Positions 4,970 to 51,278 of a stretch of DNA of 64,000 nucleotides are shown one piece after another. Origin of the DNA: a virus; the IMG/VR virus record IMGVR_UViG_3300020045_008546, positions 31,460-95,459 of that record; one strand, written 5' to 3'. Position 1 is the stretch's first letter. Each line of letters opens with the position of its first letter. The notes beneath the pieces were generated by a model. The model was not told the DNA's origin. It saw nothing but the letters and a program-made list of their open reading frames with translations, and searched no databases. Made by a program: the position numbers and the translations under genes.

Positions 4970-7654
4970 ATGGCAGAACTTACAGACGACGAAAAATTAA
5001 GAATGTACACAAATCCCGAAATTTCACAAGAAGACCAAATTCAAAACGAAATCACCGGATACAACCGTTTAATTTCCGAAGCGCAACAATTCGTATTAGA
5101 AATTGAAACTATCCCACAGACTAAATTTTTAAGCGAACAATTTATTATGTTCCATGAAAAAAGAATCACAGATAGAAACATCATTAAAAAGTTCTATGAG
5201 ATTCTAATTGCTGACTGGCATTATAAAATTGATTCAGCTAAAAAAGAATTATCAACAATTAAAGGCGGCAATCCATTTATAACAAACGATGCAGTTGAGG
5301 AATCTACTGAAAAATTAAACGATCAGATTACAGATCCAAACCCGGATGATATTAACGCTGAATTCCCTGTCAAGAAAAAAGGCAAGTTTTTATCCTTTCT
5401 TGAAAAGTTCTTTTCCTATGCTGATAAGACTGTTACTATTTTAAAAGAAACTAACGTAATTAAAGATAAGAAATGAAAGTACAAGAGTCACTAACGAAAG
5501 ATAACTTTTGGAATGAACTTACTAAATCTTATCCATTAGGGACAAAAGTATTTTACGATTGGATAGACGAATATAAAAAGGCGGTTAACTGGCAAGATTT
5601 ATTCAGAGATCATTTAAATGCTGATGCTAAATTTAGTTCGCCTAAGTTTCATAATTTACCACATGCTATGCAACTTGGTATTTGGATATTCTTTTTAGAT
5701 GAAATAGGAATCATTTATTACTATGATGATTTAGCTGATAGTGGACTTAAAGAACATATAACTCAAACTATGAAGTTAATTGAAATTGATAATATGCCAT
5801 GAAAATAGAAATAGGTAAAACATATAAAGTTCGCAATCCTGAGTACTGTTTAGCTAATGGTTTTGTCTCACAAGATACTATCCTCAAAAAAGATGAAACA
5901 CTAACCAAAGACTTTATTGGCGTTTCAGGAGAAGCGTATTATATTAATGGAAGTGTGTATGGTATATATCAAAAATGGGAATCAGATTTAATAGAAGAGA
6001 TATTATGACAGCAATAACTATTAACGCCTTAATTGATCGTAAATTTAAATCTGGTAAGTATTTTAAAGATGAATTTACTAAATCAACTAGACAAGGAGAA
6101 CACACTATTATTTCAATTGAAATAGATATAAATAACTTTAATGAAGTAACTGATATAGACATTAAAACTGAAACTAAAAAAGATCATTTTCATGATTCAG
6201 AAGTTACTTATATCTCGTTACCAGTTAGCACTTCATTAGAAGACATTGACCACTTAATTAGAATTTTAAATTTATGATAACTAGACAAGAATTAATAGAT
6301 AGGGGGTTTACTAATGGTGACGTTCACGGTCAATTGAGAAAATATACCCTTGATGGAGATGGCAATATATGGGCAATTGATATTCAAATAAAAGATGACG
6401 GTATCATTAAATATATAGATTTAGAGTGCGAAGTTTATGATAATTATATAAACACTCTGTCTATGCCAACTAATACGCCTATTGAAGATATTGATAACCT
6501 TATTCGTATACTTAACTTATGACAAAGAACGCCTTACTTAAATTGGGATTTATAGATAGGTCAGAAAATATTTTATGTTATATCATTAAAGAATCAAATG
6601 ATTTTAGCATATATATCTATGCCGATTCTAGCTTTGAAAATAACGAAGGTGTATATTTAACTTTATCAAGCATACAGAAAGTTATTAGCACCAATCTTCC
6701 TAATATTAAAACAGTTTCTCAACTAAAAACATTCATTAAATTACTATCAAATGACAACAATTAACAAAAAAGAATACGAAGATATTCGAATCATAATTTA
6801 CAGTGTATCTATTCTAATCATTGGTTTTTTAATCGGCTATTTTATCCCAACCTCAAAAACTAAAATAGAAAACAGTGCTATGATTCAAAACTTCAACAAG
6901 GCGCACAATAACATGCTTGATTCTGACATTTACAGAGAACTTTCAGACGAAAACAAGGTGGAATTCATTGAAGGATATAAACGTGGCTCAGAAGATCAAA
7001 TTGACTACTACAATAAGCAGAAAGATGTTTATCTTAATGGTATTATAAAAAATGATTACGAATCAAGTAGAAGAGTTTATTTAAAGTTTAAACCTGAATC
7101 ATTCAAATGAAAATCTATAAAGACATATTAGAAAGTCAGTGCAAAGAATATACAAATTTGGATTTTGCAGGTTGCTGCGAAAGGTTAAGTCATACTGATC
7201 TATTAGAAATAATAGAATCTGCTGTTAAGATTTATACTTTACAAGTTGGGAAAGATATAAGACAAAGATGTTTAGATAACGTAGAGGTTATAGAAGAATT
7301 CGAAGACGGAGATCCGATATGGCATATTAATGAAGATTCTATTTTAAACATTGAAATTAAACTACCATGACCATATCAGAACGCAAACATAAATCTAACA
7401 CAAAACTTGTAGGAGCTAAACAGCTATGCGATTTATTTAATGCAGCTAGATACTTTTGTTGTGGCGTTATTTTTATTTCTGTTCTTCCTGTATGGGAAAG
7501 TAAAAGTATAGCAATGATATTTCTGTTTAGCTTTTTAGTGTTAGTATTGATCTGTAACTTACTTTATAATTTGTTTAGCAGAGTAATGGATGAGGCATTG
7601 AAAGAGCTAAGTGAGATTGACAAATTAAATAAGTGGATCAGCAGTTCTAACTAA
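4970..7654 (+). other. Operon of about 10 small hypothetical phage proteins, including tandem paralogs 5975-6277 and 6274-6522
   Basis: Overlapping start/stop codons; shared C-terminus P..T..EDID.LIRILNL. Confidence 0.7.
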
Positions 7655-24965: not shown

Positions 24966-27614
24966 ATGAAAAAGTATTTAATCGCTTTACTTCTTTTATC
25001 TTCGTATATAGGGTATAGTCAAACAGTCTCTTCTTTACCTTCTAATCTTGGTTCGTTAGTTCTGTTTAGAGATAATCCGGTTACTTTAAAAGCTGTGTTC
25101 CCTTCTGGTTATTTATCCAGTTCAACTGTTTCGTCGGACGTGTATCAAATAACCGGAATCTCTGGAACCAAGATAGCTTCAATAATACCTACTACATCTA
25201 AATCAGGCGATACAATTAAAGTTTCACTTACCACTTCACAAGTAGGTAGATTAGCTAGTATTTCAGGATCAATAGGATTGTTTATTAAGATTAATACCAC
25301 TTACGTATTAGGTTCAACAATTACCGTTAGGGTAGGTTCAGGAAATGCTAATACTACGCCTTTTACAGTTAACTTACCTGAAATAGGTATTGTTAAAATT
25401 AATTTAGTTGGTGATGTAGGTTCTGCTTTAAGATATGCCCATTTAGCTGATTCATTAGCAACAATAGCAAAAACAGCTAGTACTAATGCACAATCTAATG
25501 CTTCAATAAGTATAGCAGCAAAGGATAGTGCAAGAATTTACGCCTTATCAACAGCTAATAAAAAGGTTTATACATCCGAAACATTAACTAATTTACGATC
25601 ATTAGCACCAACAGATACTAATTTAGTATACATTCTTTCGGATAAGCTAAGATACGGACAATTTAAATACGATCCATTAGACGTTAGTTCATTAGATAAT
25701 GGCGGTACTATAATCGTAACATCAGGCGGTAAAAGATTTAAAAGAATTATTCAGGGAACAGAATTAAGACCTGAATGGTTTGGCGCGAAAGTAGATGATG
25801 AAGTAGATGATGCACCTGCAATACAAGCTATGTTTAATGCAGTTTCACCGTCAGGAGCGATACTATTATTTTCATCAGGTATTTATTATGTAGGATCAGA
25901 ATTAACCTTTAAATCACAAACAACAGCACCGGCATATAATTACAAGATTTCTTTACGTGGTGCAGGGGTAGGGCGAACACAGATATTTGGCAAAGTAGGC
26001 TTTACTGGCAATATGTTTGAACTTAACACCGGAACAGATTCAGGAACATCAAAAGATTTATACATTACTATTCAGGATATAGAATTCAGGGCTAACACAG
26101 CAAGCAAGATTATAAACGCTACTGAAATAACAAGCGTTAAGATTTATAATAGCATGTTTTTCGGTGGTCAGGATGTAGGTATTCAGGTAGGCAATCCCGG
26201 AGGTATAGGGGGTTATTCTGTTTATATGTACAATAACTACCATAACGGACAAAGATACGGTAACGGTCAAAATAACGGGCTTATGAGGTTTAATAACATG
26301 CGCTTCGCAGTTATAGATGGAATGGAATCAGACGGGGGTAAATATGGCGTTGAATTCCTTGGATCTTCTGATAAAAACATTGTTATTAATTCCAAGATAG
26401 AAGGGACTAAAAGAGCAGGTATATTATTCGATAATACAAATGGAAGCGGAGGAGGTGAAAACAAGATCATTAATACAATGATTAACCCATATGCAGGAAC
26501 AGAAGCACAAGGATTATTTGATGGTCAAATTAATTGCATTGAGATTAACTCGCAAGGCGGGGGAAATATCGAGAATATAATCACAGGAAATACTTTATAC
26601 GCCCCTAGATTAACAAGCTTACCTAATGTATTTATTGTTAACAGTGAATCAGGAACATTTACACCGGGAGCAGGAGTAGAAGTATTAGGCTTAACATCAG
26701 GCGCACAAGGTCACATGGAAGGATTTAACACATCAGCACATAGAATGCTTGTAACAACTTATTCAGGCACATTTACAGTAGGCGAAACAATAAGACAAGT
26801 TAGCAATTCAGTTACAGCAGTTATAGCATCAGAAACACCTCGTATTAGCTCAGGAATAAAACTTTCAGGAGGCGGTGGAACTAATATTATAAACGGTAAC
26901 AACATCAGCGGATTACCTGTTTACGGAATTTATAACGAACAGAATGACAATGTTATTTCTAACAATACTATTCTAGCTAATACAGGACTTTACGCCAGTC
27001 ATACAGGTAGAATTCAGGTAACTAATAACTTCTTTTACAGCGCATCAGGAACAGGAATAAACAGGGCTAATATAGGTGAAATAATAAACACTTCTAACAG
27101 CTTTGTTGACGCAACTAATATAAACACCTCAGACTATTATTTAAAGTCCACAGGAGGCACGGTAACAGGAGCAACAGTACTAAGTGGAACTACTAATACA
27201 ATAACAGGATTAAGAACCACAGGAGACTTTTTACCAACTACTGATCAGAATACTAATGCAGGATCTGACGCGGCTAGATATTTATCAATGTATGGTATTT
27301 ATTTTAACGGTGACGCTTTTATAGCAAGAACAACATCAGGAATGAGTGTTCAAACATCAGACTTAAATACACGCGCTCAATTCGCTAATGATGGAAGTTT
27401 AATTATTCAACCCGGAAGTGGTAGTTTTAGCTCTATTGCCTCAGCAGCTTTGCAGGTTAATAGTACTTCAAAAGGCGCGTTATTACCCCGAATGACAACA
27501 ACACAAAGAGACGCTATAAGTTCACCAGCAGAAGGAATTGAAATATACAATATCACTGTTCATAATAAGCAATTTTACAACGGTACAGTTTGGAAGACAG
27601 TAGTTACGGATTAA
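24966..27614 (+). CDS. Tailspike/depolymerase-like beta-helix protein with N-terminal signal peptide
   Basis: MKKYLIALLLLSSYIGYS|Q; DNGGTII...KR and PEWFGAKVD..DDAPAIQA (pectate-lyase-3-like entry); ISNNTI beta-helix repeats; C-terminal KGALLPRMTTTQRDAI..PAEG..IYN. Confidence 0.8.
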   Translation: MKKYLIALLLLSSYIGYSQTVSSLPSNLGSLVLFRDNPVTLKAVFPSGYLSSSTVSSDVYQITGISGTKIASIIPTTSKSGDTIKVSLTTSQVGRLASISGSIGLFIKINTTYVLGSTITVRVGSGNANTTPFTVNLPEIGIVKINLVGDVGSALRYAHLADSLATIAKTASTNAQSNASISIAAKDSARIYALSTANKKVYTSETLTNLRSLAPTDTNLVYILSDKLRYGQFKYDPLDVSSLDNGGTIIVTSGGKRFKRIIQGTELRPEWFGAKVDDEVDDAPAIQAMFNAVSPSGAILLFSSGIYYVGSELTFKSQTTAPAYNYKISLRGAGVGRTQIFGKVGFTGNMFELNTGTDSGTSKDLYITIQDIEFRANTASKIINATEITSVKIYNSMFFGGQDVGIQVGNPGGIGGYSVYMYNNYHNGQRYGNGQNNGLMRFNNMRFAVIDGMESDGGKYGVEFLGSSDKNIVINSKIEGTKRAGILFDNTNGSGGGENKIINTMINPYAGTEAQGLFDGQINCIEINSQGGGNIENIITGNTLYAPRLTSLPNVFIVNSESGTFTPGAGVEVLGLTSGAQGHMEGFNTSAHRMLVTTYSGTFTVGETIRQVSNSVTAVIASETPRISSGIKLSGGGGTNIINGNNISGLPVYGIYNEQNDNVISNNTILANTGLYASHTGRIQVTNNFFYSASGTGINRANIGEIINTSNSFVDATNINTSDYYLKSTGGTVTGATVLSGTTNTITGLRTTGDFLPTTDQNTNAGSDAARYLSMYGIYFNGDAFIARTTSGMSVQTSDLNTRAQFANDGSLIIQPGSGSFSSIASAALQVNSTSKGALLPRMTTTQRDAISSPAEGIEIYNITVHNKQFYNGTVWKTVVTD

Positions 27615-27671: not shown

Positions 27672-28403
27672 TTAAACTAATGTCTCAGACACAATAGCAT
27701 AAATCTTATCAATATGCCCTAGTCTTTCTGCTAATTCAAGATTAGATTCTCTTTTCTTCTTCATGCAGGCATTTAAGTTAACACCATATCTATAATATAG
27801 TTTCTCATAAATAGAACGCCATACACTTTGTTGATCCAATCCCTTTGCGCCGCAATATTGATTAACTATTTGTCTAATGTTAGCTCGTTTAGTTAAATCA
27901 GGAACTTTATCAGTAGACCTTTCGACACTTAACAATAATTTAGTTGCCTCAGCCTTTTCTTTTTTGTTGTCCTCAATATACTTTTCAATATTACTAACCG
28001 ATTCTTTTAATAAACCAATTTGCTTTTCCTGATCGGCCAACACCTGAGCACTTTGAAGAATTAATTCAATTTGACTTAATGGCTTAGGTTGTTCAAAAAC
28101 TACTTTATTAGCCTTTTCTAGCTCAATAAAATAAAGCCTAACGATCTTTCCACGTTCTGTTCTTTGTAGCATGGATATTTCTTTTGCCATGTCTATTATA
28201 ATAGCATAATCAACTCCATCTCTTCCTCCTGAGCTTTTCACCCGAATAGGGGTAAAGTCTAAACCCTCTTCAAATCCATATTTAAACATTGATTTAGCCC
28301 ATGAACTAAAATCTTTTCTAACGCCTAATGATTCATGTAAATTCTTTAAACTTACAATATCAACACCGTTTTCATTTTTTACTACTTTAACTATTTCTTC
28401 CAT
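27672..28403 (-). CDS. AntA/AntB-family antirepressor
   Basis: LHESLGVRKDFSSWAK, F.EGLDF, DYAIIIDMAKEISMLQRTERGKIVRLYFIELEK. Confidence 0.9.
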   Translation of the reverse strand: MEEIVKVVKNENGVDIVSLKNLHESLGVRKDFSSWAKSMFKYGFEEGLDFTPIRVKSSGGRDGVDYAIIIDMAKEISMLQRTERGKIVRLYFIELEKANKVVFEQPKPLSQIELILQSAQVLADQEKQIGLLKESVSNIEKYIEDNKKEKAEATKLLLSVERSTDKVPDLTKRANIRQIVNQYCGAKGLDQQSVWRSIYEKLYYRYGVNLNACMKKKRESNLELAERLGHIDKIYAIVSETLV

Positions 28404-28418
28404 AATTGTAAAATAAGA

Positions 28419-28515
28419 AATCCCAACTAACTAAAAGGCTGCAACCTCTTTCGTCAATCGGGATTAATATAATTTTGGTTATCTGTTGCAGCAGATTTAT
28501 CTATACACAAATATA
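28419..28515 (-). promoter_or_regulatory. Structured 5' leader (kissing loop), copy B
   Basis: TATATTTG 28508-28515; hairpin ATCTG-CTGCAA-CAGAT with loop complementary to the TTGCAG loop of hairpin 28419-28465. Confidence 0.72.
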
Positions 28516-28526
28516 GTAAAATTAAC

Positions 28527-29213
28527 TTAACTTTCCAAAGTATTTTTTGACCTAATAAAACCAATAGAAACGATAATCATTAACACTATTTCAAAATAAT
28601 AAGGTATATGACAAACAAAATAAAGTGCCTCATGATTATCCCAAGTAAAATACATATTATATAAAGCACTCGTGAACATTGAAGAGCAATTATAGGCTAG
28701 TAATCCACAGACTATACAAAAATGGCTTGAACGCGTTAATTCGGCCAAATAAACCTCTTCTATTAACTCATATAAAAACAAAAAGCAATACGAACATATT
28801 ATTATACATTTAATAGGTGAAGCATATAAAACAAATTTAATATCACTAGAAGTTAAAGAATCTAAATTGCAAATAGCTAAATCTATAAAAAATATAATAG
28901 TAAAAATAACACCACAATATTTAATATACTTTTTATATCCCAAATCAAAAAATACATTGTAAAAATAATATGACACTATCCAGAAGCTAACTATTAACCA
29001 TAAATTATTATAAGCTATATTGTTAATTCTATTAGCTGAATATATATCTGTTATAATATCTATAATTAATTTAACTATTAAATAATAAAAGAAAATGCGT
29101 AAGGACTTTGATTCATCCCTACGCATTAACAATATTATTATTGGGAATATTGTGGATATCAACACTCCAAAATGTAATGGATAATTTTGAAAGTATTGTA
29201 TCTGTTTATCCAT
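28527..29213 (-). CDS. Seven-transmembrane protein, putative peptide receptor
   Basis: Seven hydrophobic segments, NNIAYN and F...GLL.Y motifs, no cytoplasmic output domain. Confidence 0.75.
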   Translation of the reverse strand: MDKQIQYFQNYPLHFGVLISTIFPIIILLMRRDESKSLRIFFYYLIVKLIIDIITDIYSANRINNIAYNNLWLIVSFWIVSYYFYNVFFDLGYKKYIKYCGVIFTIIFFIDLAICNLDSLTSSDIKFVLYASPIKCIIICSYCFLFLYELIEEVYLAELTRSSHFCIVCGLLAYNCSSMFTSALYNMYFTWDNHEALYFVCHIPYYFEIVLMIIVSIGFIRSKNTLES

Positions 29214-29217
29214 ATAT

Positions 29218-29502
29218 TTACCTACAATCTGGTGGGCATGGGCTTCCTTCTGACATTGCTTTATAAGTCAATACGCCTGACTTGAATACCAATTCGATAA
29301 CTGTTTTAGTTTTACCGTCAATTAGTCCATGCTTAATATTAACACCATCTACGGTTGAAATATCAACTCCTGCGATAAGCTCCTTAATCGTATCTATACT
29401 AAAAAATTCACTCTCGATATACTTAGATCCCTTTTTAACTTTCCCTGCCCTATGTTTTTCAGTTATCTTATCAGCAGTCGCTTTGTCAATTAATTTACTC
29501 AT
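29218..29502 (-). CDS. Small protein ending in GSPCPPDCR (PCPPxC family)
   Basis: C-terminal PCPPxC motif; 4 bp from the 7-TM gene; TAGTTTTG promoter box at 29528-29535. Confidence 0.75.
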   Translation of the reverse strand: MSKLIDKATADKITEKHRAGKVKKGSKYIESEFFSIDTIKELIAGVDISTVDGVNIKHGLIDGKTKTVIELVFKSGVLTYKAMSEGSPCPPDCR

Positions 29503-29608
29503 TATATCTGATGGTTTTATGTGTCTTCAAAACTACCAAAAACTAGGTAATTTTAAAAACCGTTTAATCAATTTGAAAAAATAAATTGAAAATAATTGCA
29601 ATTAAATT

Positions 29609-29675: not shown

Positions 29676-29861
29676 ATGTATATTTTAACTAATTAATTTG
29701 AGGATGAATTTATTAATTCAGGAGATGATGAAAATATGGAAGATTTCACGACAGATATTAATGATGCAATGAAATGGAGTGATGATCGAAATGCTATTCG
29801 CATGTCTGAGCTATTCACAAAAAGAACAGGTATTAAATTAATTATAAAACAGATATTATGA
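29676..29861 (+). pseudogene. Small ORF broken by one in-frame TAA (29694-29696)
   Basis: MYILTN*FEDEFINSG...FTTDINDAMKW...KQIL*; stop overlaps next ATG. Confidence 0.5.
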
Positions 29862-30007
29862 AAGTAGGAAGGCCAAAAGGAATAAATAGTGTTCACAAGA
29901 GTTTTAATTTAGACAAGCAACATTTGGATTTCTGGAACTCACAGCCAAACAAAAACCGAATGGTTAACAACGCGATTGAAAAACTTAAAAACGAAACTAA
30001 ATTATGA
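29858..30007 (+). CDS. 49-aa GRP-hook / RHH-like DNA-binding protein (not in ORF track)
   Basis: MKVGRPKGINSVHKSFNLDKQHLDFWNSQPNKNRMVNNAIEKLKNETKL. Confidence 0.55.
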   Translation: MKVGRPKGINSVHKSFNLDKQHLDFWNSQPNKNRMVNNAIEKLKNETKL

Positions 30008-33000
30008 TAGGCGAGATTGAATTAAAGAGAATAGGCGAAGGGTATAACGAGGTGTTTAATAAAATGCAAGAAGTTATTATCAAAAAGGATAAAGAGTTAA
30101 TACTATCCAATCAAATGTATTTTAAATCAGCTACTTTAAATATTCAACTACTGGAATACATAACGCAAAATAAGCACATAAGCGAATTAACTAAAAGTGA
30201 AATAGCTGATATAGTAGCACTAAACAAATGAAAACAATCCACAAAGCATTAGAATACGTAACACTAAATACTTCTCTTGAACAAAAAAGAGTAGGTGATT
30301 TATTGAAGTGGCATGTAGTTTTAGGTGAAATTAAAGGGCGAGTAATGGGTGTTAAAACTTTGTATAATTGCAATATTTATCCAGATATGTCTTTTAGTCA
30401 TGAAAGAGAACTTTACATTGATATCAAAGAATCTGAATTTATGGCGTATGTTATTGAGTTAAGTGATGGTAAAAGAGTTTATTCAACTATTTAAAAAAAT
30501 AAAATTATGGGATGCGATATTCATGTATTTGTAGAGTACAAAGAAAAAAAAGGTGATTGGTGGCAAGGGTTTGGCTCTGAGATCCATTTAGATAGAAATT
30601 ATTCAATGTTTAGTTTTATGTGTGATGGCGTAAGAAGTGATCACGATAATGGATATAAGGCAAGAGGGTTGCCGGAAGACTTATCGCACAGAGCTAAGGA
30701 TTCTAATTGGTTGTACATAACAGAAGAAAAAGATGAATGCAATACAGCTACATTAGAAGAAGCTGTACGGTGGCATAGGGATGGCAAAGGAAGTATAATT
30801 AAATATGATACAAAAGGTGATCCACAATACGTTGAACATCCCGATTGGCATTCCCATTCTTGGCTAAATACTAAGGAATATGAAGATTGTTTAAATAAAT
30901 CTGACCATATCACACCAGATTATAGAGCCATTTTAGCTTGCATGAAATCATTTGAATCAGATAATTGTGAAGCAAGGTTAATATTTTGGTTTGATAATTA
31001 ATCATGAGCGAAGAACTAAAAGAACTATTATCAACTCTAAAAGAAGAGCTAGTAAGAAAAACAGAAAACCTTGAAGAGACTAGATTAAGGTTAATAGAAG
31101 CTAATACTGTTATTTACGAGATAAGTAGATTAATGAATGATGTTCATATACCAGATACAAAGTATTGTATTGAAGAAATTATTAAACAATATTTAACTAA
31201 ACCGAAATGAGCATTATTAGCGAGATGATTGATGATAATATAGAAATGAATAATAGATGTATTTCTTCTATGAAATCCTTAATCGATGGAATTGAAATTA
31301 GGGATAAAATTATTGAACAACAAGAAAAAATAATTGTCAATCAAGATTTATTAATTAAGGAGCTGAAATTAAAAATAAATTCAAACCTATGAAAACAACT
31401 ACAAGACCTTTAAATATGAGTGAATTGGGATCTGCTTTGCATTTATCAGTATGCTCTTCAATGATGATAGATTTACTTGATAAGCTATCTTATACTAACA
31501 TCTACAAGCATAAATTAAAGCTAGTAACTAAGGCGTTCTTAAAAGAAATAGAATTGCATCAAGAAGAAAACTTATGGAAATCATCAGTAGCTAATAGTAA
31601 TATTGATACAGCTAACGAACAAATGCAAGGGTTAGTAGATTTCTTAGGCAACTTGTTTTTAATCGGTATAGCTTCTGAAAAGATTGATCCTGAAATACAG
31701 AAAAGTTTCTTTGAAAGAATAGATCAGGTTTGCGAAGAGTTTAATATACCTTTGGAGTTAAAGAGTGATGGAAGTATGCAATTTAGAGAACAGAAAGTTT
31801 TAATTGAAGAGGTATGAAATATTACTTTATTAGTTATACAGAAGTATACAGTGGCGGTAATGTTAGATTTAGAAACGCCTTTATTGAAGGTCATCCACTT
31901 AAATGGCTAGAAGACAAAAATGACCCTCGATACAATAGTACTTATTTTTACACATTAATTAATTGGAAAACTATTCCAGAATCAGATTATAAATTTTACA
32001 GACAATGACAAATAGATACATTATATTAAATGAAAGTCAATCTGCACATTGCTGTTTCACTCATTCAGTTATTGACACAAAAGAAGGAGTAGAAGATTAT
32101 AGTAATAAAGAAACCATCTATTGGAAGAAATGCATAGCAGAAACATTCAGTCTTGAAGATGCAAAACTAATAGTTAACGCCTTAAATAATTTAGAACAAT
32201 GAGCGATAATGTAAACAACCCATCTCATTACGGTGGGAAAGATAGCATCTATGAAGTAATTAAGATTGCAGAATATTACAATGCCGATCTTTATATCTTT
32301 AATTTGTTGAAATATTGCCTTCGTGCCGGTGTTAAAAATGAGGCAACTGAGCTAGAAGATCTCAAAAAAGGTGCGTGGTATCTACAAAGAAAAATAGATC
32401 GCTTAGAAGCACAAAAACAAGGCGTAGAGATTAATCTTAGTTGTGAAGATAAACTATCGCCAGATTTCGTAGTTACATGTCAACAATTAGAAGATATTAT
32501 ATCTAATTCTGATCAACCAAAAGTAATTGAAGAATTAAAAGTAGGAGATAAGATAAAAGCGATTGATTATTTATATATGCACGATAATACCGCAAACTTA
32601 TCCTTAATAAAAGATAAATATTATATTATAAAAGATATAGTACGAGGATTGAATATTATAGTAGCAAGCGAGTATGATAAAAACCATTATTTTACTTTAT
32701 CGGATCTAAATGAATTCTTCCACGTAACCCATTCACAAGGCGTACTAACAAAAGAAAATATTCAGGATATTAAAGATAGTAATTATCAAGACAATTTAAA
32801 CGAAGGATATCATTAATAATTATGGACAATATAAAAAGCAAAGAATTAGAAGAATTATCTAGGCCACTTATTAAATGGCTATGCGATAACTATCACCCAC
32901 ATGTAACAGTTATTATAACGCCTACAAGTGCAGAGTTAAGTGAAGGTATTTTATGTACAGGAATTATTAATGATTATTTAAAAGATTAATACATTATGAT

Positions 33001-50468: not shown

Positions 50469-51278
50469 TTATTTAAAAATATCATTATAAAAAACGGCAA
50501 TAATAATAGAAACCAACATAATTGCGGAAATAATTTGTACTACCTTACTAAAAGTAGCAGAAGGTCTTTTTCCACTTATAATTTCAAATAAATTAACTAA
50601 CGAATGCCACCCATCTAATCCCGGTATAGGAAGTAAGTTAAATATTGCTATCGACATTGATAATTCTATGTTTTTCAATAAAAGATATCCAAAAGCAGTT
50701 TCTTTAAATTCATTAAATATACCAACTGGGCCAGCGATATGTTCATAAATCTTTAACGTTCCGAATAATAATCCAAATACAACACCAAATCCTTTATATA
50801 CAACATATAGTACACCTAAAAATCCCCCCATTATAGATTTAAGTATAGACAAGTCTTTTGTTGTATAAAATACAATAGCTAATCCAATCATCGCAAACAA
50901 CAAATTCATAACAACGCCTGATAGCATAATTATTAACCTTTGCCAAGCCGGTTTACTATAAAAGTCTTCATCATCATACGTATAATTATCATAATCTCTA
51001 TTGCCTTTTTCTTCTTCTGGCGTTATATCTTGCTTGAAATCAAATGTTTCATCTGCTATCATTCCTTGAAGTTTAACAAAACCCCCGATAGGCAAAATGC
51101 CAATGCCATATTCAGTACCCTTATGGATTATTTTCATCATGGCAGGGGGTATTCCTATATAAAATTTCTCCACTCTTACGCCGAAAAATCTATCCGCCAA
51201 ATAGTGTCCAAGTTCGTGAATACCAATAATGAAAGCGACAGAAACAACAAATTGAATAGTTTGAATTAGAGTTTGCAT
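50469..51278 (-). CDS. RseP-like M50 intramembrane metalloprotease lacking PDZ domains
   Basis: HELGH, F.IG, PIGGFVK, GVVMN, GPVGI, FNLLPIPGLDG. Confidence 0.92.
   Translation of the reverse strand: MQTLIQTIQFVVSVAFIIGIHELGHYLADRFFGVRVEKFYIGIPPAMMKIIHKGTEYGIGILPIGGFVKLQGMIADETFDFKQDITPEEEKGNRDYDNYTYDDEDFYSKPAWQRLIIMLSGVVMNLLFAMIGLAIVFYTTKDLSILKSIMGGFLGVLYVVYKGFGVVFGLLFGTLKIYEHIAGPVGIFNEFKETAFGYLLLKNIELSMSIAIFNLLPIPGLDGWHSLVNLFEIISGKRPSATFSKVVQIISAIMLVSIIIAVFYNDIFK

Follow-up and report, generated by a model that had tools for sequence, protein, structure and literature searches.

Phage copies of the first two components of an unnamed Bacteroidota cassette: a CPxxC-tailed small protein and a stand-alone seven-helix membrane protein

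We analyzed a 64,000-nucleotide stretch of DNA from a virus (IMG/VR record IMGVR_UViG_3300020045_008546, positions 31,460 to 95,459; the window hereafter, with positions counted from its first nucleotide), and within it a pair of tightly spaced minus-strand genes that encode a small protein with a C-terminal CPxxC motif and a membrane protein with seven transmembrane helices (7TM). The record to which the window belongs (G000) is 95,459 bp long and has a CheckV completeness of 77%. Three minus-strand genes follow one another in series: the small-protein gene (29218-29502), the 7TM gene (28527-29213), and AntA (27672-28403). The small-protein gene ends at a TAA stop codon, which is followed by four nucleotides (ATAT) and then by the ATG of the 7TM gene. 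An initial annotation had described this arrangement as a 94-amino-acid (aa) protein ending in GSPCPPDCR, a gap of 4 nt, a 228-aa seven-helix protein without an output domain, and then AntA, and all of these points were confirmed. The features of the locus, with the open reading frame (ORF) calls and searches from which they come, are as follows.

29218-29502, minus strand: small partner protein of 94 aa, with a predicted helix-helix-strand-strand domain, a linker, and a CPPDC-R tail (ORF call, 10-member family, AF2, hhalign)
28527-29213, minus strand: stand-alone seven-helix membrane protein of 228 aa, with a fold shaped like that of a G-protein-coupled receptor (GPCR) (HMMER, AF2, VIA, Foldseek)
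27672-28403, minus strand: AntA/AntB-type antirepressor gene (Pfam PF08346, E = 6.7e-21, above the cut-off; PHROG anti-repressor families)
29528-29535, minus strand: promoter-like -7 box TAGTTTTG (sequence)
29534-29549, minus strand: 16-bp palindrome TACCTAGTTTTTGGTA (TACC-N8-GGTA) overlapping the -7 box (sequence, pattern search)
29094-29127, minus strand: terminator-like hairpin within the 7TM gene, with a 13-bp stem and a U-run, at codons ~29-43 (folding dG = -19.5, z = -6.3)
28404-28526, minus strand: structured 123-nt spacer from the 7TM gene to AntA, with a TATATTTG box and a long hairpin (dG = -33.8, z = -5.1)

The pair belongs to a family that is common on bacterial chromosomes. The initial annotation had pointed to a Bacteroidota cluster made up of a CPPxC protein, a 7TM protein, a histidine kinase, and a NarL/LuxR regulator, and profile and neighborhood searches showed that this cluster exists and is frequent. 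With a profile built from 37 7TM sequences we sampled 401 genomes across Bacteroidota, the phylum of Telluribacter humicola (Spirosomataceae); 75 of the 401 genomes had matches, with up to five copies per genome. In T. humicola, a 131-aa protein ending in ..GPRCPKTCIPPVPNPDEE is followed by the 7TM gene, then by a kinase of 268 aa (a hydrophobic N-terminal stretch, HisKA_3, and HATPase_c), and then by a regulator with Response_reg and GerE domains. Sixty further loci were fetched beyond Telluribacter, and neighborhoods were scripted for 68 bacterial 7TM genes. A co-oriented upstream ORF with C[PG]xxC in its last 45 aa was found for 37 of the 68 (CPPFC being the commonest form), and related Cys/Pro tails stand upstream of seven more; a kinase starts within -100 to +400 bp of the 7TM stop codon in 48/68, and a regulator lies within 2.6 kb in 54/68. 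As a control for the motif, we counted it in all 698 ORFs of the loci, where it occurs in 38: 34 of these ORFs immediately precede a 7TM gene, two are additional copies from the family, and two are chance occurrences.

The kinases of the cassette have one membrane helix and no sensor domain, and their genes usually abut or overlap the 7TM gene. At one locus (L069) a 663-aa PAS-HisKA-HATPase-REC hybrid kinase (5601-7592, plus strand; domains from Pfam) comes after the pair in place of the short HisKA_3 kinase, and at two others (L056 and L079) the kinase position is taken by a receiver-matching ORF of 666-684 aa; the pair therefore recurs with different kinases. The cassette, with its order of CPxxC protein, 7TM protein, sensor-less HisKA_3 kinase, and NarL-LuxR regulator, is widespread in Bacteroidota and unnamed. 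Literature searches on the motif or the cassette returned peptide-chemistry papers only, and for the two input proteins neither a model in Pfam, NCBIfam, or PHROG nor a solved structure or publication was found. Nor did any target or regulon gene recur beside the bacterial cassettes, and no processing enzyme or exporter was found beside the pair in phage or bacterial loci.

The bacterial loci vary in several respects. Tandem 7TM paralogs precede one kinase-regulator pair, or none, in L039 (G336, three copies), L094 (G190, three copies), and L049 (two copies). The upstream partners in L045, L055, L059, L061, L077, and L089 have lipoprotein-like or signal-peptide-like N-termini and Cys-free Pro-rich tails (PPVPGN, PPKPPAE, FPPPKQ), so the Cys pair is not universal among the partners. 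Two long partners (L036 and L040, 247-249 aa) end at TPCPPGT and TPCPPNF, with the second cysteine missing; the stop codon is TGA in one and TAA in the other.

The same pair is present in two complete IMG/VR phage genomes with direct terminal repeats, one of 99,882 bp (G402, locus L002) and one of 96,243 bp (G403, locus L003), and in both of them the stop and start codons of the two genes overlap. The three phages are only distantly related: the proteins of the pair are 28-39% identical, and two other genes are ~50% identical to those of the window in one of the two fetched loci. In the tree of 7TM proteins, the three phage sequences and six metagenomic sequences make up one clade of nine rows (SH-aLRT 95), nested in a clade of 36 rows (SH-aLRT 99) that includes the Spirosomataceae cassette, and this placement would fit a single capture with long divergence after it. 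Domain searches of the 95-kb record gave no HisKA_3, HATPase_c, receiver, or GerE match, and those of the two complete phages no HATPase_c or receiver (Response_reg) match, in agreement with the initial annotation, which had seen neither a kinase nor a regulator in the window. The phages therefore carry the input half only, i.e., a partial cassette. This phage-borne partial cassette is new, and the bacterial cassette to which it corresponds is itself undescribed.

The gene after the pair is AntA in the window, a TnpB/Cas12f1-like gene (OrfB_IS605 and TNB domains; L002, 8797-9831, plus strand) in the 99,882-bp phage, and, in the 96,243-bp phage, a 120-aa ORF that lacks any AntA-like match to the window. 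Because the downstream gene differs among the three phages, AntA being adjacent to the pair in neither L002 nor L003, the link to AntA that had been proposed from adjacency is incidental, and AntA is a neighbor of the pair, outside the conserved module.

Neither the small protein nor the 7TM protein matches a Pfam, NCBIfam, or PHROG model, and profile searches of PDB sequences gave no match to either. Scans of IMG/VR and of JGI metagenomes with the small-protein alignment returned only the two related phage contigs, and a genome-contig scan with the same alignment returned no match. In the family of 10 small proteins of the phage clade (94-108 aa), C89, P90, C93, Y28, E30, S31, and F33 are invariant; the members share a Y-x-E-S-x-F motif, the C-P-x-x-C motif, and a few other positions; the N-terminal domain is conserved, and the linker and the two inner residues of CPxxC are variable. 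The conserved tail can be written as [PSAV]-C-P-x-x-C followed by 0-4 residues, with PCPPxC as the commonest form in bacteria. The phage family and the bacterial partners, which range overall from 94 to 250 aa, are homologous over their full length (hhalign: 92 columns, probability 97.1%, E = 5.3e-11). The AF2 model of the small protein is of low confidence (pLDDT = 54.6), the linker being poorly modeled. No signal peptide, N-terminal hydrophobic signal, or double-glycine site was found in any of the 10 small proteins.

Homologs were not within reach of word-based searches, which returned the window's own proteins only, and a tblastn search against 50,697 phage records gave no match. For the 7TM protein, an exhaustive phmmer search (E < 1e-3) returned 66 cluster representatives (best E = 1.5e-40), nearly all of them 190-260 aa long and none with a kinase-sized extension. 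One locus (L001) was discarded as a spurious low-complexity match. The AF2 model of the 7TM protein, computed from the 37-sequence alignment, shows a short N-terminal helix and then seven long ones (pLDDT = 92.7, pTM = 0.90), and the 228-aa protein has no further domain beyond these helices. From the positive-inside rule we infer that the N-terminus is outside and the C-terminus inside. A VIA structure search with the model returned a designed GPCR-like fold (Z = 13.5) and the yeast pheromone receptor Ste2 (Z = 12.7), with root-mean-square deviations of 4.2-4.9 over 205-217 residues, where Z below about 13 can reflect helix arrangement alone; Foldseek matches had E >= 0.1 and TM-scores up to 0.62. 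All matches of the structure searches were GPCR- or rhodopsin-shaped bundles. Scores of this size are also attained by helical bundles through arrangement alone. GPCRs and microbial rhodopsins share with the modeled 7TM protein the overall shape of a seven-helix bundle, but identity is 3-12%, with no sequence relationship, and there is neither a retinal lysine nor a G-protein context. The most conserved positions of the family lie on both faces of the membrane (an Asn in the first outer loop, and F-W where helix 6 begins on the cytoplasmic side), and the family has no conserved catalytic-looking set of His, Cys, or Asp.

The promoter-like box and the inverted repeat that the initial annotation had placed before the small-protein gene are present. 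Within the window alone the repeat is at chance level, since at least one TACCT-N7-GGTA occurs in 27 of 100 shuffles, but it is conserved in the two other phages: TACCTA-N4-TnGGTA is found in all three, ending 28-32 nt before the start codon of the small protein, and the last two bases of the palindrome are the start of the -7-like box. It is the sole intergenic copy in the 95-kb record. Sites of the NarL type are arranged as 7-2-7 pairs of heptamers. The palindrome also reads as a 7-2-7 pair of TACC-type heptamers, with half-sites TACCTAG, TACCCAA, and TACCTAC, which match the NarL/NarP heptamer consensus TACYYMT (PMC4886647) at 5-6 of 7 positions, a resemblance only. Its position over the core promoter suggests repression. 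A second copy with identical half-sites (TACCTAGAATTTGGTA) lies outside the window (G000:C1:30117-30132; L097, 4118-4133), within a 155-aa ORF in a run of minus-strand ORFs taken for virion genes, and is probably due to chance. We also considered a divergent small ORF (29858-30007) as a ribbon-helix-helix repressor and rejected it: having no Pfam match and no homolog in the related phages, it is unlikely to bind the conserved operator.

Two RNA hairpins accompany the pair. A strong hairpin followed by a U-run is found at the same codons of the 7TM gene in the three phages (window, 29094-29127, minus strand; L002, 8087-8120; L003, 8087-8122), although the stem sequences differ; these codons specify the end of helix 1 and the first cytoplasmic loop. 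In the same region of the 68 bacterial 7TM homologs, the mean best minimum free energy is -12.5 kcal/mol vs. -8.5 kcal/mol in the control region (Wilcoxon test: P = 2.7e-6), and U-runs are rare there. The intragenic hairpin may be a candidate attenuator, fixing how much small protein is made relative to 7TM protein. In the spacer before AntA (28404-28526), the long hairpin stops some 15 nt short of the AntA start codon, and an Rfam search of the spacer gave no family above the gathering score; this hairpin could be the terminator of the pair, a leader of AntA, or both.

On its two sides, the phage pair is flanked by a beta-helix tailspike-like gene and by a run of small unannotated plus-strand ORFs. 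The tailspike-like protein (24966-27614, plus strand) has a C-terminal module with ..LLPRMTTTQRDAISSPAEG.., and a Telluribacter protein encoded near the cassette (L004, 11907-12632, minus strand) has a stretch ..ILIPRMTATQRSGISNAAEG.. much like this tailspike end. The window also encodes a 269-aa Peptidase_M50 protein (site-2 protease; 50469-51278, minus strand; Pfam E = 6.2e-44); a tie between this protease and the pair was ruled out, as it is absent from the 99,882-bp and 96,243-bp phages, both of which carry the pair.

We tentatively favor, at a little under an even chance, the reading that the pair is a phage copy of the input half of the Bacteroidota cassette and rewires a host kinase-regulator pathway. 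Both phage proteins are homologous to the first two components of the cassette, and gene order, tight coupling, the C-terminal CPxxC, and the seven-helix fold are shared. The phage copies differ from the cassette in having neither kinase nor regulator, in forming one supported clade of 7TM proteins, and in having a conserved promoter palindrome of their own. The suggestion of the initial annotation that the pair plugs into or jams a host two-component system is still the best reading of it as a signaling module, whereas a cyclised secreted peptide, arbitrium-like control, and the AntA link are not supported.

We picture the mechanism as follows. In bacteria, the 7TM protein would supply the sensor that the kinase is missing, with the small protein as its partner or co-sensor. 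The 7TM protein is regarded as the detached sensor of the kinase because the kinases have no sensor domain, because their genes abut or overlap the 7TM gene, and because a hybrid kinase can substitute for the usual one. As the phage has sensor and partner and neither kinase nor regulator, the pair would act on a host kinase. During infection, the phage 7TM protein together with its own partner would engage the sensor-less host kinase in the membrane, and the host kinase may be locked or blocked, with the host LuxR-type regulon set in the phage's favor. The palindrome, resembling a NarL-type 7-2-7 site and lying over the core promoter, may let a dimeric regulator control the pair, perhaps the regulator of the host cassette, and the intragenic hairpin may keep the 7TM protein scarcer than the small protein.

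Several known systems bear on this picture. In LiaFSR and VraTSR of Firmicutes, the gene of an accessory membrane protein directly precedes those of a HisKA_3 kinase, whose external sensor is small or missing, and of a NarL-type regulator, and the accessory protein controls the kinase. The cassette likewise has a membrane protein encoded directly upstream of a sensor-less HisKA_3 kinase, but the architecture is analogous only, for LiaF and VraT are unrelated to the 7TM family, which has no Pfam match in either its phage or its bacterial members, and we know of no small CPxxC partner and no phage-borne copy of LiaFSR or VraTSR. Phage phiCDHM1 and phage protein PIT4 are precedents for phages acting on host signaling. 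In its published description, phiCDHM1 carries agrD, agrB, and agrC, with no response-regulator gene among the agr genes listed there (PMC3901668). It is thus also a phage with an incomplete host signaling cassette and a proposed influence on host signaling; it differs in that phiCDHM1 keeps the kinase AgrC and in that its AgrD is a short propeptide processed by AgrB, whereas the pair in the window comes without a kinase, its 7TM protein has no AgrB-like peptidase match (Pfam and NCBIfam, E <= 1), and its small partner is 94 aa long vs. about 45 aa for AgrD. PIT4 of Pseudomonas phage LSL4 is likewise a phage protein acting on host two-component kinases, but it is reported to bind several host kinases through their histidine-kinase domains, in an account that does not present it as a captured host sensor (PMC10714779), and here we have a membrane sensor pair.

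The following observations weigh against the favored reading. No kinase lies directly downstream in 15 of the 37 bacterial CPxxC pairs, so the pair may work without a dedicated kinase. The small domain is preceded by an N-terminal membrane anchor or a lipoprotein signal in 14/37 bacterial partners, the other 23/37 being phage-like in having neither, so that the small domain may meet the 7TM protein from either side of the membrane. At the beginning of helix 6, a position held by Trp in 83% of the family, the 7TM protein of the window has Cys. TACY-N8-RGTA is not enriched upstream of the bacterial cassettes, where enriched 6-mers (of the ATAGGG/CCCTAT type) and assorted palindromes occur and no single motif could be defined; the palindrome is consequently assigned to a host NarL-type regulator by resemblance only. 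Lying between the -33 and -7 regions, it has a position compatible with any repressor, including one of the phage.

The alternative that survives best, although we consider it rather unlikely, is that the pair performs a membrane function of its own, independent of any kinase (envelope protection, superinfection exclusion, or something transporter-like), so that the phage took an effector and not a sensor; in bacteria the adjacent kinase and regulator would then merely regulate the pair or use it as co-sensor, as BceS does with BceAB. The 15 of 37 pairs with no kinase directly downstream speak for it, as does a well-supported clade (L051, L064, L066, L076, and L085) in which no kinase match lies within 5 kb and no co-oriented regulator downstream. 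The place of the phage pair, between the tailspike-like gene and the small ORFs, is a frequent site of accessory genes, and with no recurrent target gene beside the cassettes the pair itself could be the regulated output. Such a function leaves unexplained why the adjacent kinases lack sensor domains, and the usual overlap or abutment of the kinase and 7TM genes suggests one complex. The 7TM fold, moreover, resembles receptor-type bundles and not known transporters, and a catalytic-looking set of conserved His, Cys, or Asp is not found.

An improbable alternative is communication, in which the small protein would give rise to an exported CPxxC peptide, with the 7TM protein as the receptor of that peptide, the phage either talking in the manner of arbitrium or faking or jamming a host pheromone. 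Gene order recalls agrBDCA and comQXPA, and the bacterial cassette uses kinases and regulators of the ComP/ComA class (HisKA_3/NarL). In ComQXPA of Bacillus, ComP has its own multi-helix sensor, and ComX is a short prenylated peptide made by ComQ. The cassette shares with ComQXPA a four-gene unit of a small signal-side protein with a HisKA_3/NarL-class kinase-regulator pair, but no ComQ-like enzyme lies beside it. Variation in the linker and in the two inner CPxxC residues, set against a conserved N-terminal domain, would suit a signal, about 40% of the bacterial partners are exported or membrane-anchored, and the best structural matches include the peptide-pheromone receptor Ste2, although Z values below about 13 are frequent among helical bundles. 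The disulfide-cyclised, secreted peptide that had been proposed is made less likely by several results: the phage small proteins have neither a signal peptide nor a double-glycine site; genes for processing or export are absent beside the pair, in the phages as in the bacteria; the partners, at 94-250 aa and homologous over their full length, are no short propeptides; some bacterial partners have the Cys-free Pro-rich tails; and synthetic CPXXC motifs pair between chains rather than cyclise (PMC11379947). The arbitrium system (AimP-AimR-AimX) depends on a secreted AimP and on AimR, a cytoplasmic TPR protein, whereas here the small protein has no hydrophobic N-terminal signal and the candidate receptor is an integral 7TM protein with no Pfam match. 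No tyrosine integrase (PF00589) was found in the three phage records, so that a lysis/lysogeny switch for the pair to feed is not evident, and the arbitrium-like control of that decision put forward earlier is not borne out. The chance is equally small that the CPxxC protein and the 7TM protein are the ligand and receptor of a new cell-cell signaling system of Bacteroidota, with a phage allele that senses or fakes cell density; if true, the communication reading would provide the first peptide- or protein-based phage communication outside Firmicutes, with a GPCR-shaped receptor.

Least probable of all, and held at a very low probability, is that the small protein senses redox state or metals in the cytoplasm, the two CPxxC tails of a dimer binding a thiophilic metal or forming inter-chain disulfides and relaying their state to the 7TM protein from inside, so that the phage would read or buffer the redox or metal state of the host (a variant of the favored reading with another signal). 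The sequence CPD[IV]CP is the copper site of Sco proteins and lends it some appeal; cysteines of the phage proteins, which lack export signals, should remain in the reduced form, the CPxxC pair at the tip of the flexible tail never varies, and the strongest conservation in the 7TM protein (F-W, where helix 6 begins) falls at the cytoplasmic face. CPXXC motifs also readily form inter-chain pairs upon oxidation (PMC11379947). We rate it so low because many bacterial partners with the same domain are exported or are lipoproteins, where a cytoplasmic sensor makes no sense, because Cys-free partners exist, and because no metal-handling genes recur beside the cassettes.

If the favored reading, the input half of the cassette acting on a host kinase, is true, then the pair draws attention to a cassette that is common in Bacteroidota, occurring in roughly one-fifth of the sampled genomes and often in several copies, whose input proteins have had no family, structure, or paper. 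Phages would have captured its sensing half alone and kept it under purifying constraint, with an operator and an RNA hairpin. This would amount to a natural experiment in which the phage pair should act dominantly on the host kinase, and the pair would allow direct study of what is under the control of the cassette and of how a split sensor communicates with its kinase. A membrane-sensor route would thereby be added to the known ways in which phages tamper with host signaling.

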